In this document: in pieces, positions 5,029 through 44,387 of the stretch | How the letters are laid out: each line of letters starts with the position of its first letter | How positions within the stretch are numbered: the first letter of the stretch is position 1 | DNA from: a virus | Taxonomy: Duplodnaviria; Caudoviricetes | IMG/VR virus record: IMGVR_UViG_3300020434_000055 | Strand: one strand, 5' to 3' | DNA: 64,000 nt | The notes under the pieces: generated by a model | The model's input: the letters and a program-made list of their open reading frames with translations, nothing else | Told to the model about the DNA's origin: nothing | Database searches by the model: none | Position numbers and translations under genes: made by a program

Positions 5029-5360
5029 TGTAGACGTTGAAGTTTGGGTAATAAATTTCAGGGACGTCGGGGCAGTACCGACCACCTCCACCAAATTCTT
5101 CCGCGTGAAACATTTTAAGGTTTAAGTGTTTAACGGGGGTGAACTAGGATCGACCGGAATGTAAAGACAAATGGAGTCTATCTAGTAGGCACGAAGTAAC
5201 GTCCAATTTATAAATGCATTAGCATTTAAACCTGAAGTGACAGTTCCAGTTAGCATTTTTGCTGACAGAGAACTGGTTGCAGTTTAATACTGCCATTTCG
5301 GAGAAAGGTTAATCTCGGCAACAGAACATAGACCAGCATAGGGGCTTCGGCCCCTATGTT
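5029..5360 (+). ncRNA. ssrA: Circularly permuted (two-piece, alphaproteobacterial-type) tmRNA
   Basis: Acceptor piece ends with T-arm GTCGG-GGCAGTA-CCGAC plus CACCTCC-A-CCA(5093). Intervening segment 5094-5134. Coding piece starts GGGGGTGAACTAGGATCGAC(5135). The 7-bp acceptor stem has a G3.U70 Ala determinant. Resume context ATAAAT-GCA at 5216, tag ORF ends TAA 5287. Outer ends are approximate. Confidence 0.93.
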
Positions 5361-10879: not shown

Positions 10880-11299
10880 ATGTCAGAAATTAAGTTAATA
10901 ACACCTCCCGATAAACTATTAAACAATAATAAAAGTTTCCTTTTGGTTAATCTAAAGGATACTTTTAAAGATGAATTTAATAACATTATGAAAAACATAA
11001 ATGTTAATATTAACCTTTATATGTATGATGAAGCAGGTTACAAAGATAGTGCTAATTGGTTAATTGAAATATCTAATTTAGCTGACTATATTATTTTGGA
11101 TATAGACCAAACTGGTTTGGATAATTGGTTAATTGGATATCTATTAGCTAAAAATCATACCTTTTATACTTGTATAGATATACCTAAACCTAGACCTTAT
11201 AACTTAATAAACAGTAATAGAATTTATAATTTAGATCCAATAAAAACAATCCTAAAAGACTTAAATGACACACCAACTAACACGAAAACAACTAATTGA
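10880..11299 (+). CDS. Conserved hypothetical phage protein
   Basis: IKLITPPDKL...YNLINSNRIYNL; follows promoter. Confidence 0.65.
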   Translation: MSEIKLITPPDKLLNNNKSFLLVNLKDTFKDEFNNIMKNINVNINLYMYDEAGYKDSANWLIEISNLADYIILDIDQTGLDNWLIGYLLAKNHTFYTCIDIPKPRPYNLINSNRIYNLDPIKTILKDLNDTPTNTKTTN

Positions 11300-11954
11300 T
11301 AGTATAATCAATATACCCAAATATTATATTATTAGATTTACTGGTTTAGGATATGAATCAGTAATGGGTATAATAACAAAAAAACAACATGACTATTGGA
11401 AAAGAAAAGGACAACGTAAACTAGGAGAGTATCTAGCAGAGTTGCGTGATATGAATGACTTAGATTATGTTCCTTATGAATCCCAATTAAAATCATCTGA
11501 TTGGTATGATTATGATAGTGTAGCCCACGCCGCCGGTGCCGAACTTAATCCTAAAAATTATTTGACTATAGAAGAAATTGATGGTCCAGACGTTCATACA
11601 GTATTAACTGAAAAATTATCTATTAAAAAATTAGCTAAACGTGGTATTGGTACATTTTGTACAGGAATATTTAATTGTAATATGAGTACATTAAAAGACA
11701 AACATTATTTCCATGGTCAAAGTCACGAACTAGGTACTTGGACTAATGAAGAAAAAATAGTTACTAACGCATTAGGTTTACAATTAGACAAGTTAAAAAT
11801 ACTATATGCAGATGTAGAAGGTAAACAAATAATTCATGGTGTTAGATATATTAAACAACCATACCATATGGAGACAAATAAAGTTACCGGAAAAAGTCTT
11901 AAACTTGGCGTAAAAAGAGGCTGGTATGATATTTTGGCGAATTTAGGCTCTTGA
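11265..11954 (+). CDS. Hypothetical protein
   Basis: Long open frame with phage-like codon use. Confidence 0.6.
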   Translation: MTHQLTRKQLIDSIINIPKYYIIRFTGLGYESVMGIITKKQHDYWKRKGQRKLGEYLAELRDMNDLDYVPYESQLKSSDWYDYDSVAHAAGAELNPKNYLTIEEIDGPDVHTVLTEKLSIKKLAKRGIGTFCTGIFNCNMSTLKDKHYFHGQSHELGTWTNEEKIVTNALGLQLDKLKILYADVEGKQIIHGVRYIKQPYHMETNKVTGKSLKLGVKRGWYDILANLGS

Positions 11955-12000
11955 TTTTTCGCTGAATAATGTTTATATTATAATAGTATGATAAATAACA

Positions 12001-12063
12001 TTGTACGTGATGCTATGATAGGTCTCGTACACATAACTTGCTTAACAAAGGAGGACGATTATG
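12001..12063 (+). promoter_or_regulatory. ROSE-like RNA thermometer in hsp20 5'UTR
   Basis: CTTGCTT-AACA-AAGGAG: the UUGCU motif pairs with SD AGGA leaving a bulged G. Upstream hairpin GTACG...CGTAC (12003-12030). Confidence 0.7.
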
Positions 12064-12507
12064 ACAAATAAAGCCCTATCAATTTTTAATCAACTAAGAC
12101 CCGTTACAATTGGATTTGATAACGTATTCGATCATTTTGAAAGAATGATGGAAGGCGATAACTTTTTCAATGGTGCTGGTGTTAATTACCCACCTTACAA
12201 TATTGTGAAAACAGGTGAAAACACTCACGATATTGAAGTTGCTCTTGCTGGATTCAGTAAGAAAGATATTGATGTAGAGTATAAAGACAATATGCTTACA
12301 ATCAAATCTATCAAAGAATCCAATACTGGCAATCAAAAGGATGGAGTTGTGCATAGAGGAATATCACAAAGATATTTTTCTAAATCTTTTACAATTGCGG
12401 ATGACGTAGAAATAAAAGGTGCAGAACTTAAAGATGGTCTTTTGACAGTTTCTTTGGAAAGAATAATTCCGGAAAGTAAAAAGGCTAAAAAAATAGACAT
12501 TAAGTAA
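12061..12507 (+). CDS. ibpA: Small heat-shock protein Hsp20/IbpA
   Basis: YPPYNIVK, IEVALAGFSKKDI, HRGISQRYFSKSFTIADD, AELKDGLLTVSLERIIPE. Confidence 0.96.
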   Translation: MTNKALSIFNQLRPVTIGFDNVFDHFERMMEGDNFFNGAGVNYPPYNIVKTGENTHDIEVALAGFSKKDIDVEYKDNMLTIKSIKESNTGNQKDGVVHRGISQRYFSKSFTIADDVEIKGAELKDGLLTVSLERIIPESKKAKKIDIK

Positions 12508-12518
12508 TATTAATGGAG

Positions 12519-12554
12519 ATAGGTGGGGGCGTTTTTTAATACGCCCTAACCTAT
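12519..12554 (+). terminator. Hairpin between hsp20 and clpS
   Basis: ATAGGT.GGGCGT-loop-ACGCCC.ACCTAT; overlaps a TATAAATA late promoter at 12552. Confidence 0.5.
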
Positions 12555-12565
12555 AAATACTTAAA

Positions 12566-12871
12566 ATGAGCACAGAAATAGAAGTTAAAATAGACGAAAA
12601 AATAAAACAAGTAATTAAAGAACCTGAAAATTACAAGGTTATCTTTTTGAACGATAACGTTACCCCAATGGAATTTGTAATAGATATTTTAATCAAAATA
12701 TTTAAACACACCGCAGAAACGGCTCGTGATCTTACTCTGAAAATCCATAAAGAAGGCTCTATAATTGTTGGACTTTATACATACGAAATAGCAGAACAAA
12801 AAGGTATGGAGGCAACTAACGAAAGTAGGAGTTTAGGATATCCACTTCAGGTTAAGATTGAAAAAGAGTGA
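12566..12871 (+). CDS. clpS: ClpS N-degron adaptor
   Basis: YKVIFLNDNVTPMEFVIDIL...LTLKIHKEGSIIVGLYTYEIAEQK...GYPLQVKIE. Confidence 0.93.
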   Translation: MSTEIEVKIDEKIKQVIKEPENYKVIFLNDNVTPMEFVIDILIKIFKHTAETARDLTLKIHKEGSIIVGLYTYEIAEQKGMEATNESRSLGYPLQVKIEKE

Positions 12872-39500: not shown

Positions 39501-40101
39501 TGGAACATCTGTATCAGGAGATACTTTAACTATTACAAATCAGGCTCCAAATGTAGATCAAAATTTATTCAATACAATTGCAGTCTCAGGACAAAGTGAT
39601 GTTATTGCAGATACAACAACTGATACATTAACTTTTGTTGCTGGTTCAAATATAACAATTACCACAGATGCCGGTACTGATAGTATTACTATTAATTCTA
39701 CTGGTGGAGGTGGATCAGGAACTCCAGGTGGTTCTACAACAGAAGTTCAATATAATGACGGTGGATCGTTTGCTGGTGATTCTGATTTAACATGGAACTC
39801 AGGCACTAATACATTATCAGCTAAAAATATTATTGCTGAAACTGTAGAAACAGAAACTATTGAAGCTCCTTCCAATTTAGTAGGAACTTATACAATTTCA
39901 TCACCAACAACTATCACATTAGATCCGGTTAGTGAAGTTATACTTGATGCTCCAATAAAATTACTTGGAAAAACAGCGGCTCAATTAGCAACCTTCACTG
40001 CAAGTGCTGGAACAATAGTTGCTGTATCAGATAATAGTTATAAACCAGCATACTACGATGGTTCAAATTGGAAATATGTTGCAACTGATGGAGGTGTATA
40101 A
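36550..40101 (+). CDS. Long repetitive tail-fibre/adhesin-like protein
   Basis: Thr/Gly/Asp-rich with 15 tandem ~50-aa units; ends with GGTTEVQYNDGGSFAGD-type fibre motif. Confidence 0.8.
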   Translation: MADRIPLIVDTSDGNKIKELPVGDNLDLSNSSLVNVTSVTATSVNVGGNLFTGSYADLTNTPTIPTDISDLTDTQSLLGAGGGGTTIISGGGAGRWMLTADDSTQVDILSDNTVKIAGAGNITTATSDVSGTTVLTVTGTESIRWDSGSGLFELFTGVDWIPIIDTTYTFEAGDGDDATAKKIRLTGTGQSTQDVTVREGTGVTITRTSNELTFTATDTDTTYSISAAEDGNTNAVLRLTASSLLTDDVIFAPGSGIGIAKTDDNTLTISNTAAGANAFGTVTVGVTDIVADTTNDTLTIVGGANIDVTGDAGTDTITIANTHADQNLFNQVAGDTGSRIAQTTTETLTIAGGTNVTTTVAGSTVTIDATGGGGSQNVFGVIAVSGQSNVVADSTTDTLTLVAGTGITLTTNPTNDSITVTNSSTGSSQNLFQTVAVSGQNNIVADSATDTLTFVGGAGITLTTNSTTDAVTIVNADPNVDQNIFQSIAVSGQGNVVADSTTDTLTFVAGSNMTITTDVATDTVTFASSGGGGSQNVFDKIAVSGETDVVADSTTDTLTFVAGAGIGITTTPGTDSVTISASGGAGSQSLFETIAVSGQSDVVADTTTDTLTFVAGTNMTITTDAGTDTVTFDSSGGGGSQDLFKTITVAGQDDVVADSTADVLTFVAGTDISITTNQAADSITINSTGSGGEDNEFSFKTIEVSGQSDVVADTTTDTLTFIEGSNMTITTSGDSITFASTGGGGSQNLWATVAGDTGSTTANTTTDTLGIVGGTDISTSIVADLLTINYTGGASAQNLFSTIAIAGQNSIVADAPTDTLTLASGAGIVLVTTAATDTLTIANSAPNIVQDVFSEIAVSGQSSLFADSSADTLNVAEGAGIEVTTSAGTDTLTITNTAPNVVQSLWSQISSDSGSTTANTSTDALAILGGTDISTSVSGDTLTIAYTGSSGSNQNLWYTIDSDSGSTTANSTTDTLSIAGGTSIGTSVSGDTLTITNQAPNVDQNLFNTIAVSGQSDVIADTTTDTLTFVAGSNITITTDAGTDSITINSTGGGGSGTPGGSTTEVQYNDGGSFAGDSDLTWNSGTNTLSAKNIIAETVETETIEAPSNLVGTYTISSPTTITLDPVSEVILDAPIKLLGKTAAQLATFTASAGTIVAVSDNSYKPAYYDGSNWKYVATDGGV
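37375..39720 (+). repeat. 15 imperfect tandem ~150-160 bp coding repeats
   Basis: Unit consensus QNLFxTIAVSGQSDVVADSTTDTLTFVAGxNITITTDAGTDSITI; DNA motif GCAGTTAGTGGTCAAAGT...GTAGCAGAT.C.ACAAC.GA.AC.TTAAC recurs. Confidence 0.9.
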
Positions 40102-41870
40102 TGTCAATGCCCGATCCAGGTGCTCCACCTAAACAAACTCATAAAGAGTTGCTAGAGAAAAATAAAGAGTTCTTCGCAGAACTACATGAAAAAGATCCAG
40201 ATGATAAATTTGAAACTATTGTTACAGTAAAAAAAGGTATTAACTGGGAAGTACTTCATAATGAACTTACTAGAGATACTACTGCCGATCCAAGTGTAGA
40301 TTCAAATATCATACCAGATAGAACTGTTGATGTTATTAAGTTAAAATCTACTAATAAAAGAAATACTCATTATAATTTAAGTCCTAACGAAGCAAAAAAA
40401 TTAAAAAATGATCCAAGAATCGAAGCCATTGAAGCACCGTTAGATCCAAGGTTTATAATACAACGAAAATATCATGACGGAGGATTTGAAAAAAGTTCAA
40501 GTCATAATAGCAATTATAGAAGAGATAATTGGGGATTATTAAGACATTGTTCTAAAACTAATAATTATGGATCAAGTACTTCAGATCCTGGTGGTTCATA
40601 TGATTATGTTTTAGATGGTACAGGTGTTGATGTTGTGGCTCAAGATTCTGGAGTTGTAATGGGACATCCTGAATGGGAAGATTCAAATGGAGTTAGTAGA
40701 TATGATATGCATGATTGGTATTCGGTATCTGGAATATCTGGAACTCAAGCTAGTAACTTTTATTCATTAACCGATGGTTCTCATGGATCTCATGTTATGG
40801 GAACAATTGCAGGTAAAAACTTTGGTTGGGCAAAAAATTCTAAAATTTACAGTATGAGAATGTTTGGATCTGGTTCTATTGGCGGTTATGATGGTATGGA
40901 CATAATGAGAGGTTGGCATAATAATAAAAATGATCCAAATCATGCTCTATGGACAGGTACACATAGACCAACTGTAGTTAATATGAGTTGGGGGTCTTCT
41001 TACACCTTTTTTGGTGTAGGTGATGACGGGCCCAGTGTTTTTGGTTTCCCAATAACCAGTGGAAATTATCGTGGAAATTCTTATTCTATTAGTAGCAACA
41101 GTGATATGAGAAATAAAGGTTTAAGTTTTTATGGTTATGTTGATTCAATGGATTGGGCCAATGCAGGTATTAATTCTGTCGCTCGAAATGCCGAGGTCGA
41201 GCAAATGATTGATGATGGTATTATTGTATGTATTGCTTCAGGGAATGACGGTCAAAAATGGGATCTTCCTAGTGGAGCAGATTGGGACAATTACGTTACT
41301 TTAGGAGCAAATAGTTATGGCTATCGTCCTGATGATTATTCTCCCTCTATTTGGGATAACCCTTTTTCTGGAAATAAGTATTATTATAATAGAGGAGGCA
41401 GTCCTAATCCGAATTTTAATAGGGCAGGTCAGGCTTTTGTAGTTGGGTCAATTAATTACAATACTTATAGTTCTACTAGGGATAGAAAAAGTCCTTTTAG
41501 TTCTCAAGGTCCGGGAGTTAATATTTGGACGGCAGGTGAAAGGATTATAAGTTGTTCTGACGGCAGTGCAGGCGGACCATACTACCATGATACCAATTAT
41601 TGGCAAGAGAGAATGCAAGGAACATCTATGGCTAGTCCTCAGGCGGCAGGAATGGCGGCTTTAATATTCCAATTGCACCCCGATTGGACACCTAAACAAG
41701 TTGTAAGTTTTATGATTCAAAATGCTATTCAAAGTAACCTTTATTCTTCAAAAGCTAATGGTGGACTAGAAGATGATTATACTAATCATTGGTCTCTATT
41801 TGGTAGTGAAGGTAATGTTGCTTATATACCAATGGCTAATCGTAAACCTTGGAATTGGAGTTCAACTTAA
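40101..41870 (+). CDS. Subtilisin-like serine peptidase (S8)
   Basis: Catalytic triad motifs GVDVVAQDSG, HGSHVMGTIAG, GTSMASPQAAG; oxyanion ASGND; N-terminal propeptide-like region. Confidence 0.9.
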   Translation: MSMPDPGAPPKQTHKELLEKNKEFFAELHEKDPDDKFETIVTVKKGINWEVLHNELTRDTTADPSVDSNIIPDRTVDVIKLKSTNKRNTHYNLSPNEAKKLKNDPRIEAIEAPLDPRFIIQRKYHDGGFEKSSSHNSNYRRDNWGLLRHCSKTNNYGSSTSDPGGSYDYVLDGTGVDVVAQDSGVVMGHPEWEDSNGVSRYDMHDWYSVSGISGTQASNFYSLTDGSHGSHVMGTIAGKNFGWAKNSKIYSMRMFGSGSIGGYDGMDIMRGWHNNKNDPNHALWTGTHRPTVVNMSWGSSYTFFGVGDDGPSVFGFPITSGNYRGNSYSISSNSDMRNKGLSFYGYVDSMDWANAGINSVARNAEVEQMIDDGIIVCIASGNDGQKWDLPSGADWDNYVTLGANSYGYRPDDYSPSIWDNPFSGNKYYYNRGGSPNPNFNRAGQAFVVGSINYNTYSSTRDRKSPFSSQGPGVNIWTAGERIISCSDGSAGGPYYHDTNYWQERMQGTSMASPQAAGMAALIFQLHPDWTPKQVVSFMIQNAIQSNLYSSKANGGLEDDYTNHWSLFGSEGNVAYIPMANRKPWNWSST

Positions 41871-41898
41871 ATCTGATAAATATGAGTAGGAGATAAAA

Positions 41899-42582
41899 AT
41901 GGCAGTTAGTAGTGTTAATATAGGTAATATAGCAAACGACGGTACAGGAGATGATTTAAGAGAAGCGTTTATTAAAGTTAATAATAATTTCGCTGACTTA
42001 GAGGCTAGAAATCCTGAACAAACTACTGCCTCTAATTTATTACCCGACGATGCTAACACTAAAGGTTTATTTTCTACAGTAACAGATTTTGATTTAAAAT
42101 TTAAAAGTCTTAAAGCAGGTACTAACGTTAGTTTTAGTTCTGATGCTAATCAAATTACTATAACTTCTTCAGGTATTGTCAGTATTCAAGTTACTACTGA
42201 TGCAGGTAGTCTTACTCCAATAGGTAGTACAGGGTTAGCTAGGTTTCTTGGTGCTGGTGGTGTTCTCACAACTGGTGGAGGAACTGACGTAACTATAGAT
42301 TCAAGATTATCTAGAGAATCATCTCCATCTTTAGGAGGTACTCTAGACGCGGCGGCAAATAATATTAATAATGTAGGTACATTAACAGTTCAAAACGTAG
42401 ATGGACTTGTAAAAGGTATAGATGTTGGTAATATTGATTCTGTTGTAGGCTTTGATATGGGTGGAATTGTTCCTACTGCTGTTAGTAACCTAATGCAATG
42501 GTTTGAAAGTTTAAAACCACTTGATATGGGTACTCCAGCTTCTCCAAACGCAACAAACATAGATTTAGGCACTTTAGCATAA
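41899..42582 (+). CDS. Baseplate/fibre structural protein
   Basis: VNIGNIANDGTGDDLREAFIKVNNNF gp9/10-type N-terminus; SPSLGGTLD motif. Confidence 0.75.
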   Translation: MAVSSVNIGNIANDGTGDDLREAFIKVNNNFADLEARNPEQTTASNLLPDDANTKGLFSTVTDFDLKFKSLKAGTNVSFSSDANQITITSSGIVSIQVTTDAGSLTPIGSTGLARFLGAGGVLTTGGGTDVTIDSRLSRESSPSLGGTLDAAANNINNVGTLTVQNVDGLVKGIDVGNIDSVVGFDMGGIVPTAVSNLMQWFESLKPLDMGTPASPNATNIDLGTLA

Positions 42583-42620
42583 TTGTTCTTACGATAAATA
42601 TTAAAAAAGGACAATAATTC

Positions 42621-44387
42621 ATGAGTACATTATGGAGTGTTAGAACCGGTCATAATTTAGGAACCTATCAAGAAAAGGTTCCGACTACCATCAATCTACC
42701 AACAGTTGGCACTATTGTTACTGAATTATTAGCAGGAACATTACCGGCAGGAACAAGATTAGAAAATAATACAATTACAGGTACATTTTTTGAAGTACCA
42801 AGAGATACAGAATATAAATTTGTTATAAGAGGAACAAAACTAATAATTAATAATCCAAGTGAAACAGAAGATAGAACTTTTACTGTTAATGTCCAAGGAC
42901 CAGATGTTCCATTATGGATTACCCCTGAAGGATCTTTACCTATTGGAGCAAATGCCCAATTATTCATACTAGACAGTTCTTATGTAGATTTTCAATTACA
43001 AACTATTGATTCAGATTTAAGTACAGGTAGTACTTTAAAATATTACATTCCTAACGATGGAGGTGAGTTACCCCCAGGAATTACATTAAGCGAAGATGGA
43101 AAATTAAGTGGAATAGTAGATCCTATATTAGCATTAGACATTAATTCAAGTACAGGATTTTATGATTCAAATAATTATTCAGTTTATCCATTTGACTTTG
43201 GTAACATAGGCGCCTATCCGGCTAGTAGTTATTATTTTGACGTTGAACAAAATTATGCATTCTTTAATCAAAATAATAAAATAAAATCTCCTAGAAAACT
43301 TAATAGATATTATGAATTTAAAGTAAATGTAACCGATGGTGATACTATTACAACTAGATTATTTCAAATATTTGTTATTGGTGATGATTTCCTAAGAGCA
43401 GATAATACTATTATGCAAGTTGGCTCTGGAATTTTTACTTCAGATGGAACATATTTAAGAGAACCAAGATGGTTAACTCCTCGTGATATAGGTTATAAGA
43501 GAGCAAATAATTATGTAACTATTTTTCTTGATTTATATGATCCTAATACATTACCAGGAACAATATCTTATATATTAGAACATAAAAATGATGATGATAC
43601 TGATAGCAAATTACCTGAAGGTATGACCTTAGATGTTAAAACAGGAGAAATAGCTGGTCGAGTACCTTACCAACCTACAGTTACAAAAGAATATAAATTT
43701 ACTGTAACTGCATTAAGATATGACTTACAGTCAGAATTAGTTGCTGTTCCAATAAATCCATATGAAGATCAACTACGAGGTTCAGGAGATTTAAAAATAG
43801 CAAAATTACCATTAGGAACTGCTGATGGTATAAAAGATTTAGAATCATTAAAAACTCAAACAATAATGATTAATGGTAATGAATTTGTAGTTCAAGGAGT
43901 TAATGGTGAAAATGAAAAATATGATACATTATCTCTTGATAAAAGTTTAATTGGAGAAGAACTTCACGTTTATACAGGGATAGTGTATGATCCAGCGACT
44001 TACTTAACCAACCCTACAGAAATTACTAGAGCTAACAATGAAATTTTTGTTTATAATAGAGTAGACAAAGACAAGTACATTGGTAGAACATTAAAATTTA
44101 GCGATTCAGAAAAATATGAAATTGAAAGCATTGAAACGGTATTAGCTGAAGGGAAACCAGCAGATCAAAATATTGCAAACGCAACTGCAATGGAAAAATT
44201 AGTTCTTAATACAAGTATTACTAGAAGTTTTGTAAACAATGAAAATATTAGTATTGGGGCATTCAAAGGAAAAACTACATTTAAACAATTTGTTGTAGGA
44301 TCCACAGATACACAACCTCAAGCAACTAAAACATTTACAGTTAACATATTAGGAGAAATTGACAGTACTATATCATGGGTGACGTAA
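42621..44387 (+). CDS. Putative Ig-domain baseplate protein, N-terminal part (frameshifted at 44379-44387)
   Basis: Repeated Ig-like units (GELPPGITLSEDGKLSG; LPEGMTLDVKTGEIAG...KEYKFTVTA). Confidence 0.7.
   Translation: MSTLWSVRTGHNLGTYQEKVPTTINLPTVGTIVTELLAGTLPAGTRLENNTITGTFFEVPRDTEYKFVIRGTKLIINNPSETEDRTFTVNVQGPDVPLWITPEGSLPIGANAQLFILDSSYVDFQLQTIDSDLSTGSTLKYYIPNDGGELPPGITLSEDGKLSGIVDPILALDINSSTGFYDSNNYSVYPFDFGNIGAYPASSYYFDVEQNYAFFNQNNKIKSPRKLNRYYEFKVNVTDGDTITTRLFQIFVIGDDFLRADNTIMQVGSGIFTSDGTYLREPRWLTPRDIGYKRANNYVTIFLDLYDPNTLPGTISYILEHKNDDDTDSKLPEGMTLDVKTGEIAGRVPYQPTVTKEYKFTVTALRYDLQSELVAVPINPYEDQLRGSGDLKIAKLPLGTADGIKDLESLKTQTIMINGNEFVVQGVNGENEKYDTLSLDKSLIGEELHVYTGIVYDPATYLTNPTEITRANNEIFVYNRVDKDKYIGRTLKFSDSEKYEIESIETVLAEGKPADQNIANATAMEKLVLNTSITRSFVNNENISIGAFKGKTTFKQFVVGSTDTQPQATKTFTVNILGEIDSTISWVT

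Follow-up and report, generated by a model that had tools for sequence, protein, structure and literature searches.

The closest described system is the ROSE_3 element of Pseudomonas ibpA (Rfam RF02523; Krajewski et al. 2013, PMC3669281), a two-hairpin leader of about 60 nucleotides in front of an ibpA-type small heat-shock protein (sHSP) gene, and the phage leader that we describe here has the same build. In the Pseudomonas ibpA leaders, hairpin II melts between 25 and 42°C with hairpin I still closed. Hairpin II is sufficient for thermoregulation, and removal of the unpaired G together with one further change locks the Shine-Dalgarno sequence (SD) shut (PMC3669281). Classical ROSE elements (B. 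japonicum ROSE1) and the E. coli ibpA thermometer share with the phage leader a U(U/C)GCU anti-SD, an unpaired G and a 3′-proximal hairpin of an sHSP gene, but they are longer leaders with three or four hairpins (PMC3669281), whereas the phage leader has two. SD masking in an sHSP leader is also found in Synechocystis hsp17 and in Anabaena avashort and avalong (PMC4152365). The hsp17 thermometer is a single hairpin and a class of its own; avalong has a ROSE-like anti-SD, but the bulged base is a U and not a G (PMC4152365). Unlike these cyanobacterial thermometers, the cyanophage leaders described below have a bulged G in a CUCGCU motif of proteobacterial type.

In phages, the thermometer of lambda cIII alternates between two structures and is in its ON state at 37°C and its OFF state at 45°C. 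It resembles the hsp20 leader in tying translation of a phage mRNA to a temperature-sensitive structure, which for the hsp20 leader is a predicted one, but its sequence is unrelated and its gene is not a chaperone gene. Beyond it, to our knowledge, hardly any phage RNA thermometer has been described. According to a 2024 review, temperature-responsive RNA structures of viruses and phages are still a matter of speculation (PMC10884466). Our literature searches found no paper tying RNA thermometers to cyanophage or pelagiphage hsp20, in agreement with the earlier remark that no ROSE element is known from a phage sHSP gene.

An hsp20 leader in a marine phage genome

The window is the whole stretch of viral DNA that we analyzed, 64,000 nucleotides from IMG/VR. 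A sequence-only reading of it had proposed that a ROSE-type thermometer controls a phage hsp20 gene. Pfam identifies the product of this gene as an IbpA-like Hsp20, and the parts of the proposed element lie where they had been placed: CUUGCUU at 12037-12043, AACA at 12044-12047, AAGGAG at 12048-12053 and the ATG at 12061. Base for base, CUUGCUU is able to pair with the SD AAGGAG with G12040 bulged. The second hairpin that had been noticed upstream, GTACG (12003-12007) with CGTAC (12026-12030), forms the base of a 30-nucleotide hairpin at 12002-12031. The features of the locus are the following.

11951-11979, plus strand: sigma70-like promoter, with a -35 TTGATT (11951-11956), a 17-nucleotide spacer and a -10 TATATT (11974-11979)
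11990-11997, plus strand: T4-type late-promoter box GATAAATA, from its sequence and its recurrence in relatives
12002-12031, plus strand: hairpin 1 (5′ hairpin), UGUACG-U-GAU-G-CUA / UGA / UAG-GUC-U-CGUACA, from the minimum free energy (MFE) structure, covariation and the ROSE_3 alignment
12032-12036, plus strand: linker CAUAA, from the RNAfold MFE structure
12037-12043, plus strand: anti-SD CUUGCUU, carrying the U(U/C)GCU motif of ROSE elements and an unpaired G12040, from nearly invariant columns in 51 aligned leaders
12044-12047, plus strand: loop of hairpin 2, AACA; 3 to 7 nucleotides and variable in sequence among relatives
12048-12054, plus strand: Shine-Dalgarno sequence AAGGAGG, the 3′ arm of hairpin 2, 6 nucleotides 5′ of the ATG
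12061-12507, plus strand: hsp20, IbpA-like small heat-shock protein of 148 amino acids (Pfam PF00011, HSP20, E 3e-18)

Hairpin 1 retains two features of the ROSE_3 consensus, its GAUGC...GGUC core and the unpaired G (G12012 here), and its MFE is -8.8 kcal/mol at 37°C and -13.4 kcal/mol at 20°C. It is stable in the model and probably serves as a folding or stability module. Hairpin 2 pairs C12037-G12053, U12038-A12052, U12039-G12051, then, past the bulged G12040, C12041-G12050, U12042-A12049 and U12043-A12048, so that the lower and inner C-G pairs are present and the two top pairs are U-A. Folded alone, it has a dG of -2.8 (bulge register) or -5.5 kcal/mol (G-opposite-G register) at 20°C, and of -0.6 or -3.1 kcal/mol, respectively, at 37°C; RNAfold prefers the 1x1 loop with G opposite G for the window hairpin. 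In silico MFE folding of the isolated hairpin leaves G12040 unpaired, and the same holds for most of 45 variants. In the window and close relatives, UUAUG (12059-12063) is a possible partner of the linker CAUAA, and this pairing would include the start codon in a lower stem; other subgroups do not conserve the extension.

Like ROSE_3, the phage leader has a hairpin I with a GAUGCC...GGGUC-like core and an unpaired G, a hairpin II in which U(U/C)GCU faces the SD with its G unpaired, and a coding sequence that begins AUGAC. Unlike ROSE_3, it has shorter, AU-rich stems. Its hairpin II is weaker than the ROSE_3 consensus hairpin by 4 to 7 kcal/mol at 37°C (dG of -0.6 to -3.1 kcal/mol, compared with -7.8 kcal/mol). 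The phage leader further differs from the Pseudomonas elements in having no upper G-C clamp, in the ability of the window AUG to join the lower stem, and in being virus-borne, behind a late and a sigma70-like promoter and with no heat-shock promoter.

By both DNA and protein, the nearest isolates are the Pelagibacter phages Mosig and HTVC008M, whose Hsp20s are 69.5% and 56.7% identical to that of the window, respectively, and Hsp20s of T4-like cyanophages are below 42%. The DNA match to pelagiphages starts within hairpin 2 and not at the ATG. Another part of the window, 40101-44387, gave no blastn match among phages. SAR11 bacteria are probably the host of this marine phage. A permuted tmRNA of alphaproteobacterial type lies at 5031-5287 of the window on the plus strand (Rfam alpha_tmRNA, 81 bits, and tmRNA_permuted, 74 bits, both above their gathering scores), and in a phage-like window this fits an alphaproteobacterial (SAR11) host.

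Downstream of hsp20 the gene order is ClpS, heme oxygenase and bilin reductase. The heme oxygenase (PF01126, 12868-13491) and the ferredoxin-dependent bilin reductase (PF05996, 13687-14394), both on the plus strand, are a pigment-pathway pair; the closest phage relatives infect non-photosynthetic SAR11. The pair resembles PcyX/HemO cassettes of uncultured marine phages. At 12552-12566 on the plus strand there is a perfect late box, TATAAATA, whose end lies 6 nucleotides 5′ of the ClpS start codon (12566), without an SD; to judge from this arrangement, ClpS may be translated from a leaderless or near-leaderless late mRNA. Read by eye, the 3′ arm of a long hairpin that lies 3′ of hsp20 (about 12519-12554) overlaps this box. 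In RNA libraries of four studies there are contigs identical to hsp20 from position 12012 on, one of which continues into ClpS. Since DNA carry-over is possible in such libraries, these contigs are a weak hint that hsp20 is transcribed in the sea; none of them covers the upstream ORF (11265-11954), and they say nothing on transcript ends.

Single-sequence scores and comparison of related leaders

The window sequence, considered alone, offers weak evidence of the element. The 91-nucleotide leader folds no better than its shuffles (z-score -0.46). The SD has a predicted unpaired probability of 0.26 at 20°C and 0.28 at 37°C, rank 10 among the 24 SD-bearing ORFs of the window, and its partition-function accessibility is almost flat from 5 to 50°C. 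The nearest-neighbor dG of hairpin 2 reaches 0 near 41°C in the bulge register or 59°C in the 1x1 register, compared with about 80°C for the ROSE_3 consensus. When 33 nucleotides of coding sequence are added, many relatives fold preferentially into other pairings that leave the SD open. The fold z-score and the SD-masking rank speak neither for nor against a structure; ROSE helices use non-canonical pairs that lie outside the energy model.

That predicted SD accessibility hardly shifts between 20 and 37°C would suit a leader that masks the SD but does not act as a thermometer in the host range, serving instead as a constitutive damper or as a site of feedback repression by Hsp20. For feedback there is a precedent in E. 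coli, where IbpA represses its own synthesis through the 5′ UTR and needs Arg93 of the alpha-crystallin domain to do so (PMC10474464). In E. coli, feedback coexists with thermosensing, which makes it an added layer more than an alternative. We also count in favor of feedback the phage peptide G-I-S-Q-R-Y-F, which we align by hand with G-I-A-E-R-N-F of E. coli IbpA. A damper, on the other hand, has no need of a conserved unpaired G and weak U-A and U-G pairs, which are traits of heat-labile ROSE hairpins (PMC3669281). We consider masking without thermosensing rather unlikely; a damper or a feedback site may also exist alongside thermosensing.

The sequence-only reading had suggested comparison with the Rfam ROSE models as a check. 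ROSE_3 is the sole matching family and aligns over the full length of its model (E 0.0031 for the 1.1 kb searched), but its 27.2 bits fall below the gathering score of 43. The classical types, ROSE and ROSE_2, gave no match to the leader in the 1.1-kb search. ROSE_3 is absent from the Rfam output for the whole window at E up to 1, where filters are stricter owing to the long input. Ten other hsp20 loci have full-length ROSE_3 matches, at 23.5 to 34.9 bits and all below the gathering score; phage-type matches (L012, L021, L027, L051, L084, Melnitz L088 and C48C1 L091) score 25.6 to 34.9 bits, and the sub-threshold SAR11 leaders L188 and L191 score 23.5 to 24.5 bits. With such scores the leader is, by Rfam's rule, a sub-threshold relative and not a listed member.

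Comparative sequence evidence argues strongly for a structured leader. We fetched 80 IMG/VR loci whose Hsp20s are 65 to 89% identical to the window protein, and every locus with enough upstream sequence follows a common plan. In the 5′ part, a stem of variable sequence topped by G-CC/loop/GG-G is followed by an A/U-rich linker; in the 3′ part, AACU(U)UGCUU is followed by a loop of 3 to 7 nucleotides, AAGGAG(G), another 3 to 9 nucleotides and the ATG. Conservation, accompanied by covariation, is seen for the U(U/C)GCU anti-SD, for the bulged G and for hairpin 1. In a model-based alignment, helix 1 has both-sided (compensatory) changes at 8 of its 9 pairs and 93% of cells paired. None of 500 shuffles reaches the observed value on most whole-structure measures, and controls with slid partners fall to 44 to 68% paired. 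RNAalifold, run on a plain, unfitted MAFFT alignment of 51 distinct leaders, returns helix 1 only, with double changes at 5 of 6 pairs.

Helix 2 behaves differently. Its columns are out of register in the automatic alignments A1 and A2 (the 74-85 C-G pair is present in only 31 of 57 rows), and we therefore fitted the register sequence by sequence, using a script with a shuffle control. All 45 distinct variants of hairpin 2 can form three pairs, a bulged G and at least three further SD pairs, with the exception of L021, which makes two upper pairs. The mean number of fitted pairs is 7.4, against 5.0 ± 0.13 when the 3′ part is shuffled, and none of 200 shuffles attains the observed mean. Most variants, folded alone, have exactly the SD hairpin with its unpaired G as their MFE structure. 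Rare compensated variants occur (CUA/UAG in L083, CUAUU/GAUAG in L087 and GUC/GAC in S-RSM4), and the L057 group has a shifted, compensated CU-G-UCUA/UGGA-GG. True double changes in helix 2 are few; near-invariance is expected of this helix because one arm is the SD, which is conserved partly through translation alone.

Nearly all covariation is in helix 1, as would be the case if the hairpins served mRNA stability or processing only, with the 5′ stem opposing RNases and the anti-SD/SD complementarity incidental. Hairpin 1 stands at the predicted 5′ end of the late transcript, and a role in mRNA stability has been discussed for Pseudomonas hairpin I (PMC3669281). Such an account leaves aside that CUUGCUU, which is non-coding, is almost invariant while the surrounding linker, loop and spacer vary, that its few changes are matched in the SD arm, and that a motif of this type defines proven ROSE elements. 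A stability role alone is improbable in our estimate.

We built a covariance model, R1, from the pelagiphage-type leaders. On the 64-kb window it gives a single match, at 11991-12066. Among leaders on which it had not been trained, it finds those of MAG contigs L083-L087 at the hsp20 ATG (in L084 with a 70-amino-acid ORF in between), as well as those of the OM43 phage Melnitz, pelagipodovirus HTVC115P, C48C1 and the cyanophages S-SSM4, S-RSM4 and P-SSM4, all ending at the hsp20 ATG. In a cyanophage-type set of 80 further loci, fetched with the Hsp20 of P-SSM4, CUCGCUU...AAGGAG...ATG is present in 79, and R1 reports 56 at E up to 0.1, all at the ATG; 98.8% of all cells in this set are paired, and 98.5% of those in helix 2. 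R1 found no convincing leader at the hsp20 loci of Vibrio phage PWH3a-P1 (L095) and P-HM2 (L094).

Two of these loci merit a description. The regA-hsp20 spacer of P-HM2 (L094, about 250-292) contains a U run preceded by a perfect AAGGAGG/CCUCCUU hairpin; the start codon annotated for this hsp20 looks doubtful. In L084, the leader (315-379, the same as L178) precedes the 70-amino-acid ORF, which has no assigned function and lies just upstream of hsp20, and hsp20 has a plain SD of its own. The contig is binned as a 'Parcubacteria' MAG but is phage-like, and the leader occurs twice more in the same MAG, once in front of a second hsp20 (L182). A further R1 match, L181, lies at a contig end with no readable ORF.

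The SAR11 counterpart and the exchange of promoters

Among the 121 Pelagibacterales genomes sampled, R1 also has matches in 50; these lie on chromosome-sized contigs, reach up to 65 bits and are nearly always single. A 148-amino-acid Hsp20 gene lies 3′ of the match in the 12 loci that we read (L183-L194). The host hairpin 1 is of the same type as that of the phage, and hairpin 2 with its loop and SD reads AACUUGCUUAA(C/A)AAAGGAG(G/A)A, several host genomes being identical to the window. The window Hsp20 and the SAR11 chromosomal Hsp20s of the same 12 loci have 85 to 90 of 148 residues in common. In an Hsp20 tree that is unrooted as regards the direction of transfer between SAR11 and phages, the pelagiphage-type clade (support 99/91) is sister to the SAR11 chromosomal clade (99/96) with a joint support of 95/87, and the cyanophage-type clade stands apart from this pair. 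We found no published description of the SAR11 hsp20/ibpA leader in the literature searchable here.

These host matches bear on whether TTGCTTAA could be a protein-binding DNA motif, such as a middle promoter with a T4 MotA-like box, or a product of chance, and not part of an RNA structure. The consensus of the T4 MotA box includes TGCTT, and the single-sequence statistics are weak, both of which would agree with such a reading. However, TTGCTTAA is equally conserved in the SAR11 chromosome and in podovirus HTVC115P, is always at hairpin distance from an SD with which it can pair, and belongs to a pattern that R1 matches once per 64-kb window and about once per 1.3-Mb host genome. It lies 18 to 24 nucleotides 5′ of the ATG, so that a promoter there would start inside the gene. 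Position, together with conservation in host chromosomes and the podovirus, rules out the middle-promoter reading, and we give a DNA motif or chance next to no credence.

The transcription signals of host and phage differ. In SAR11 the leader follows CTTGAAA-N16/17-CCYATATA, whose -10 ends a few nucleotides before hairpin 1 and which we take, by its consensus, to be an RpoH-like heat-shock promoter. In phages, (G/T)ATAAATA occupies the position of the SAR11 -10, and an additional sigma70-like promoter lies about 20 nucleotides upstream of the late box in the window and its relatives. The window leader lacks an RpoH-type promoter 5′ of it and has GATAAATA in this place, with TTGATT-17-TATATT further upstream. 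Both promoter elements had been pointed out before. Relatives have the late box (GATAAATA at 11990-11997 in the window) at a constant spacing from helix 1: of 50 distinct related leaders, 40 contain ATAAATA, and in 30 of the 40 it ends exactly 4 nucleotides 5′ of the first helix-1 pair. If T4 late-promoter geometry applies to it, as we assume, the position of GATAAATA puts late initiation at the base of hairpin 1, near 12003. The sigma70-like promoter at 11951-11979 is found by a consensus scan as TTGATT-17-TATATT, with 9 of 12 matches; it is a consensus match only, and the number of promoter-like matches equals the shuffle expectation. Its -35 TTGATT overlaps the stop codon of the upstream ORF (11265-11954), and CTTGATTTT with a TATAAT-like -10 recurs in related loci L003-L023. 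From these sequences, the phage appears to keep the RNA sensor and to swap the heat-shock transcription signal for phage promoters. With the sensor kept and the transcription signals changed, the mRNA would be made on the schedule of the phage, and its translation would be temperature-gated.

A proposed mechanism and its meaning

We think it probable that the hsp20 leader (about 12003-12060) is a short two-hairpin ROSE-like thermosensor placed behind phage promoters. Its homology to the SAR11 hsp20/ibpA leader and the promoter difference are direct observations, as are its conserved, covarying sequence elements. In this proposal, the late box and the sigma70-like promoter would put the hsp20 mRNA on the phage schedule, with translation still gated by temperature. 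Hairpin 1, a stable 5′-terminal stem, would aid folding, shield the mRNA or both. In the cold, CUUGCUU would pair imperfectly with AAGGAG, with G12040 bulged, and keep the 30S subunit off the ribosome-binding site; upon warming, the weak AU-rich helix would melt and Hsp20 would be translated. We propose this zipper mechanism because the architecture is homologous to that of the Pseudomonas ibpA leaders. Masking of the SD in vivo, melting within the temperature range of the host, the start sites and the role of hairpin 1 are all predicted in this scheme. By its modeled energy, the weak hairpin 2 would fit a cooler working range, that of cool sea water. Chaperone output of the infected cell is, by analogy, probably set by temperature.

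In a variant of this scheme, the pelagiphage/SAR11 leader would switch between two states instead of simply unzipping. UGCUU in the anti-SD would have an exclusive second partner downstream of the SD, and its pairing with AAGCA or AAGCG, in the spacer or in codons 4-5, would hold the SD open in a loop. With a sensor hairpin common to both, the phage mRNA would respond to the cue of the host heat-shock regulon and would not need RpoH. A perfect 5-nucleotide complement of UGCUU (AAGCA or AAGCG) is present 3′ of the SD in 33 of 52 distinct pelagiphage-type leaders, against 3.9 ± 1.9 after shuffling, an enrichment that is confounded by a conserved N-K-A-L peptide and by shared ancestry. L078 obtains the complement from different codons (Leu-Ser, not Lys-Ala), and L007 and L021 are further examples. 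The window retains 4 of the 5 letters, 12040-12043 facing 12072-12075 (AAGC, then C for A). The complement is found in none of the 33 cyanophage-type leaders, and we therefore rejected AAGCA pairing as a general part of the element. As a description of the pelagiphage/SAR11 leader, the switch seems to us unlikely, and the simple zipper is the mechanism we prefer.

Judged by its sequence, the leader is a new, sub-threshold member of the short ROSE-like kind. What this window adds is the SAR11 counterpart with a near-identical sensor hairpin, a promoter exchange at the same position, and negative thermodynamic controls. A ROSE-like leader now stands on the hsp20 of pelagimyophages, an OM43 phage and T4-like cyanophages, which rank with the most abundant viruses in ocean surface waters, and through the cyanophage copies a sensor of proteobacterial type enters cyanobacterial hosts. 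Set side by side, the host and phage leaders offer a clean case of a virus capturing a gene along with its RNA sensor, with only the promoter exchanged. If the leader works as in Pseudomonas, the chaperone supply of infected cells would follow water temperature post-transcriptionally, independent of the host heat-shock sigma factor. If true, this would bear on the outcome of infection under ocean warming.
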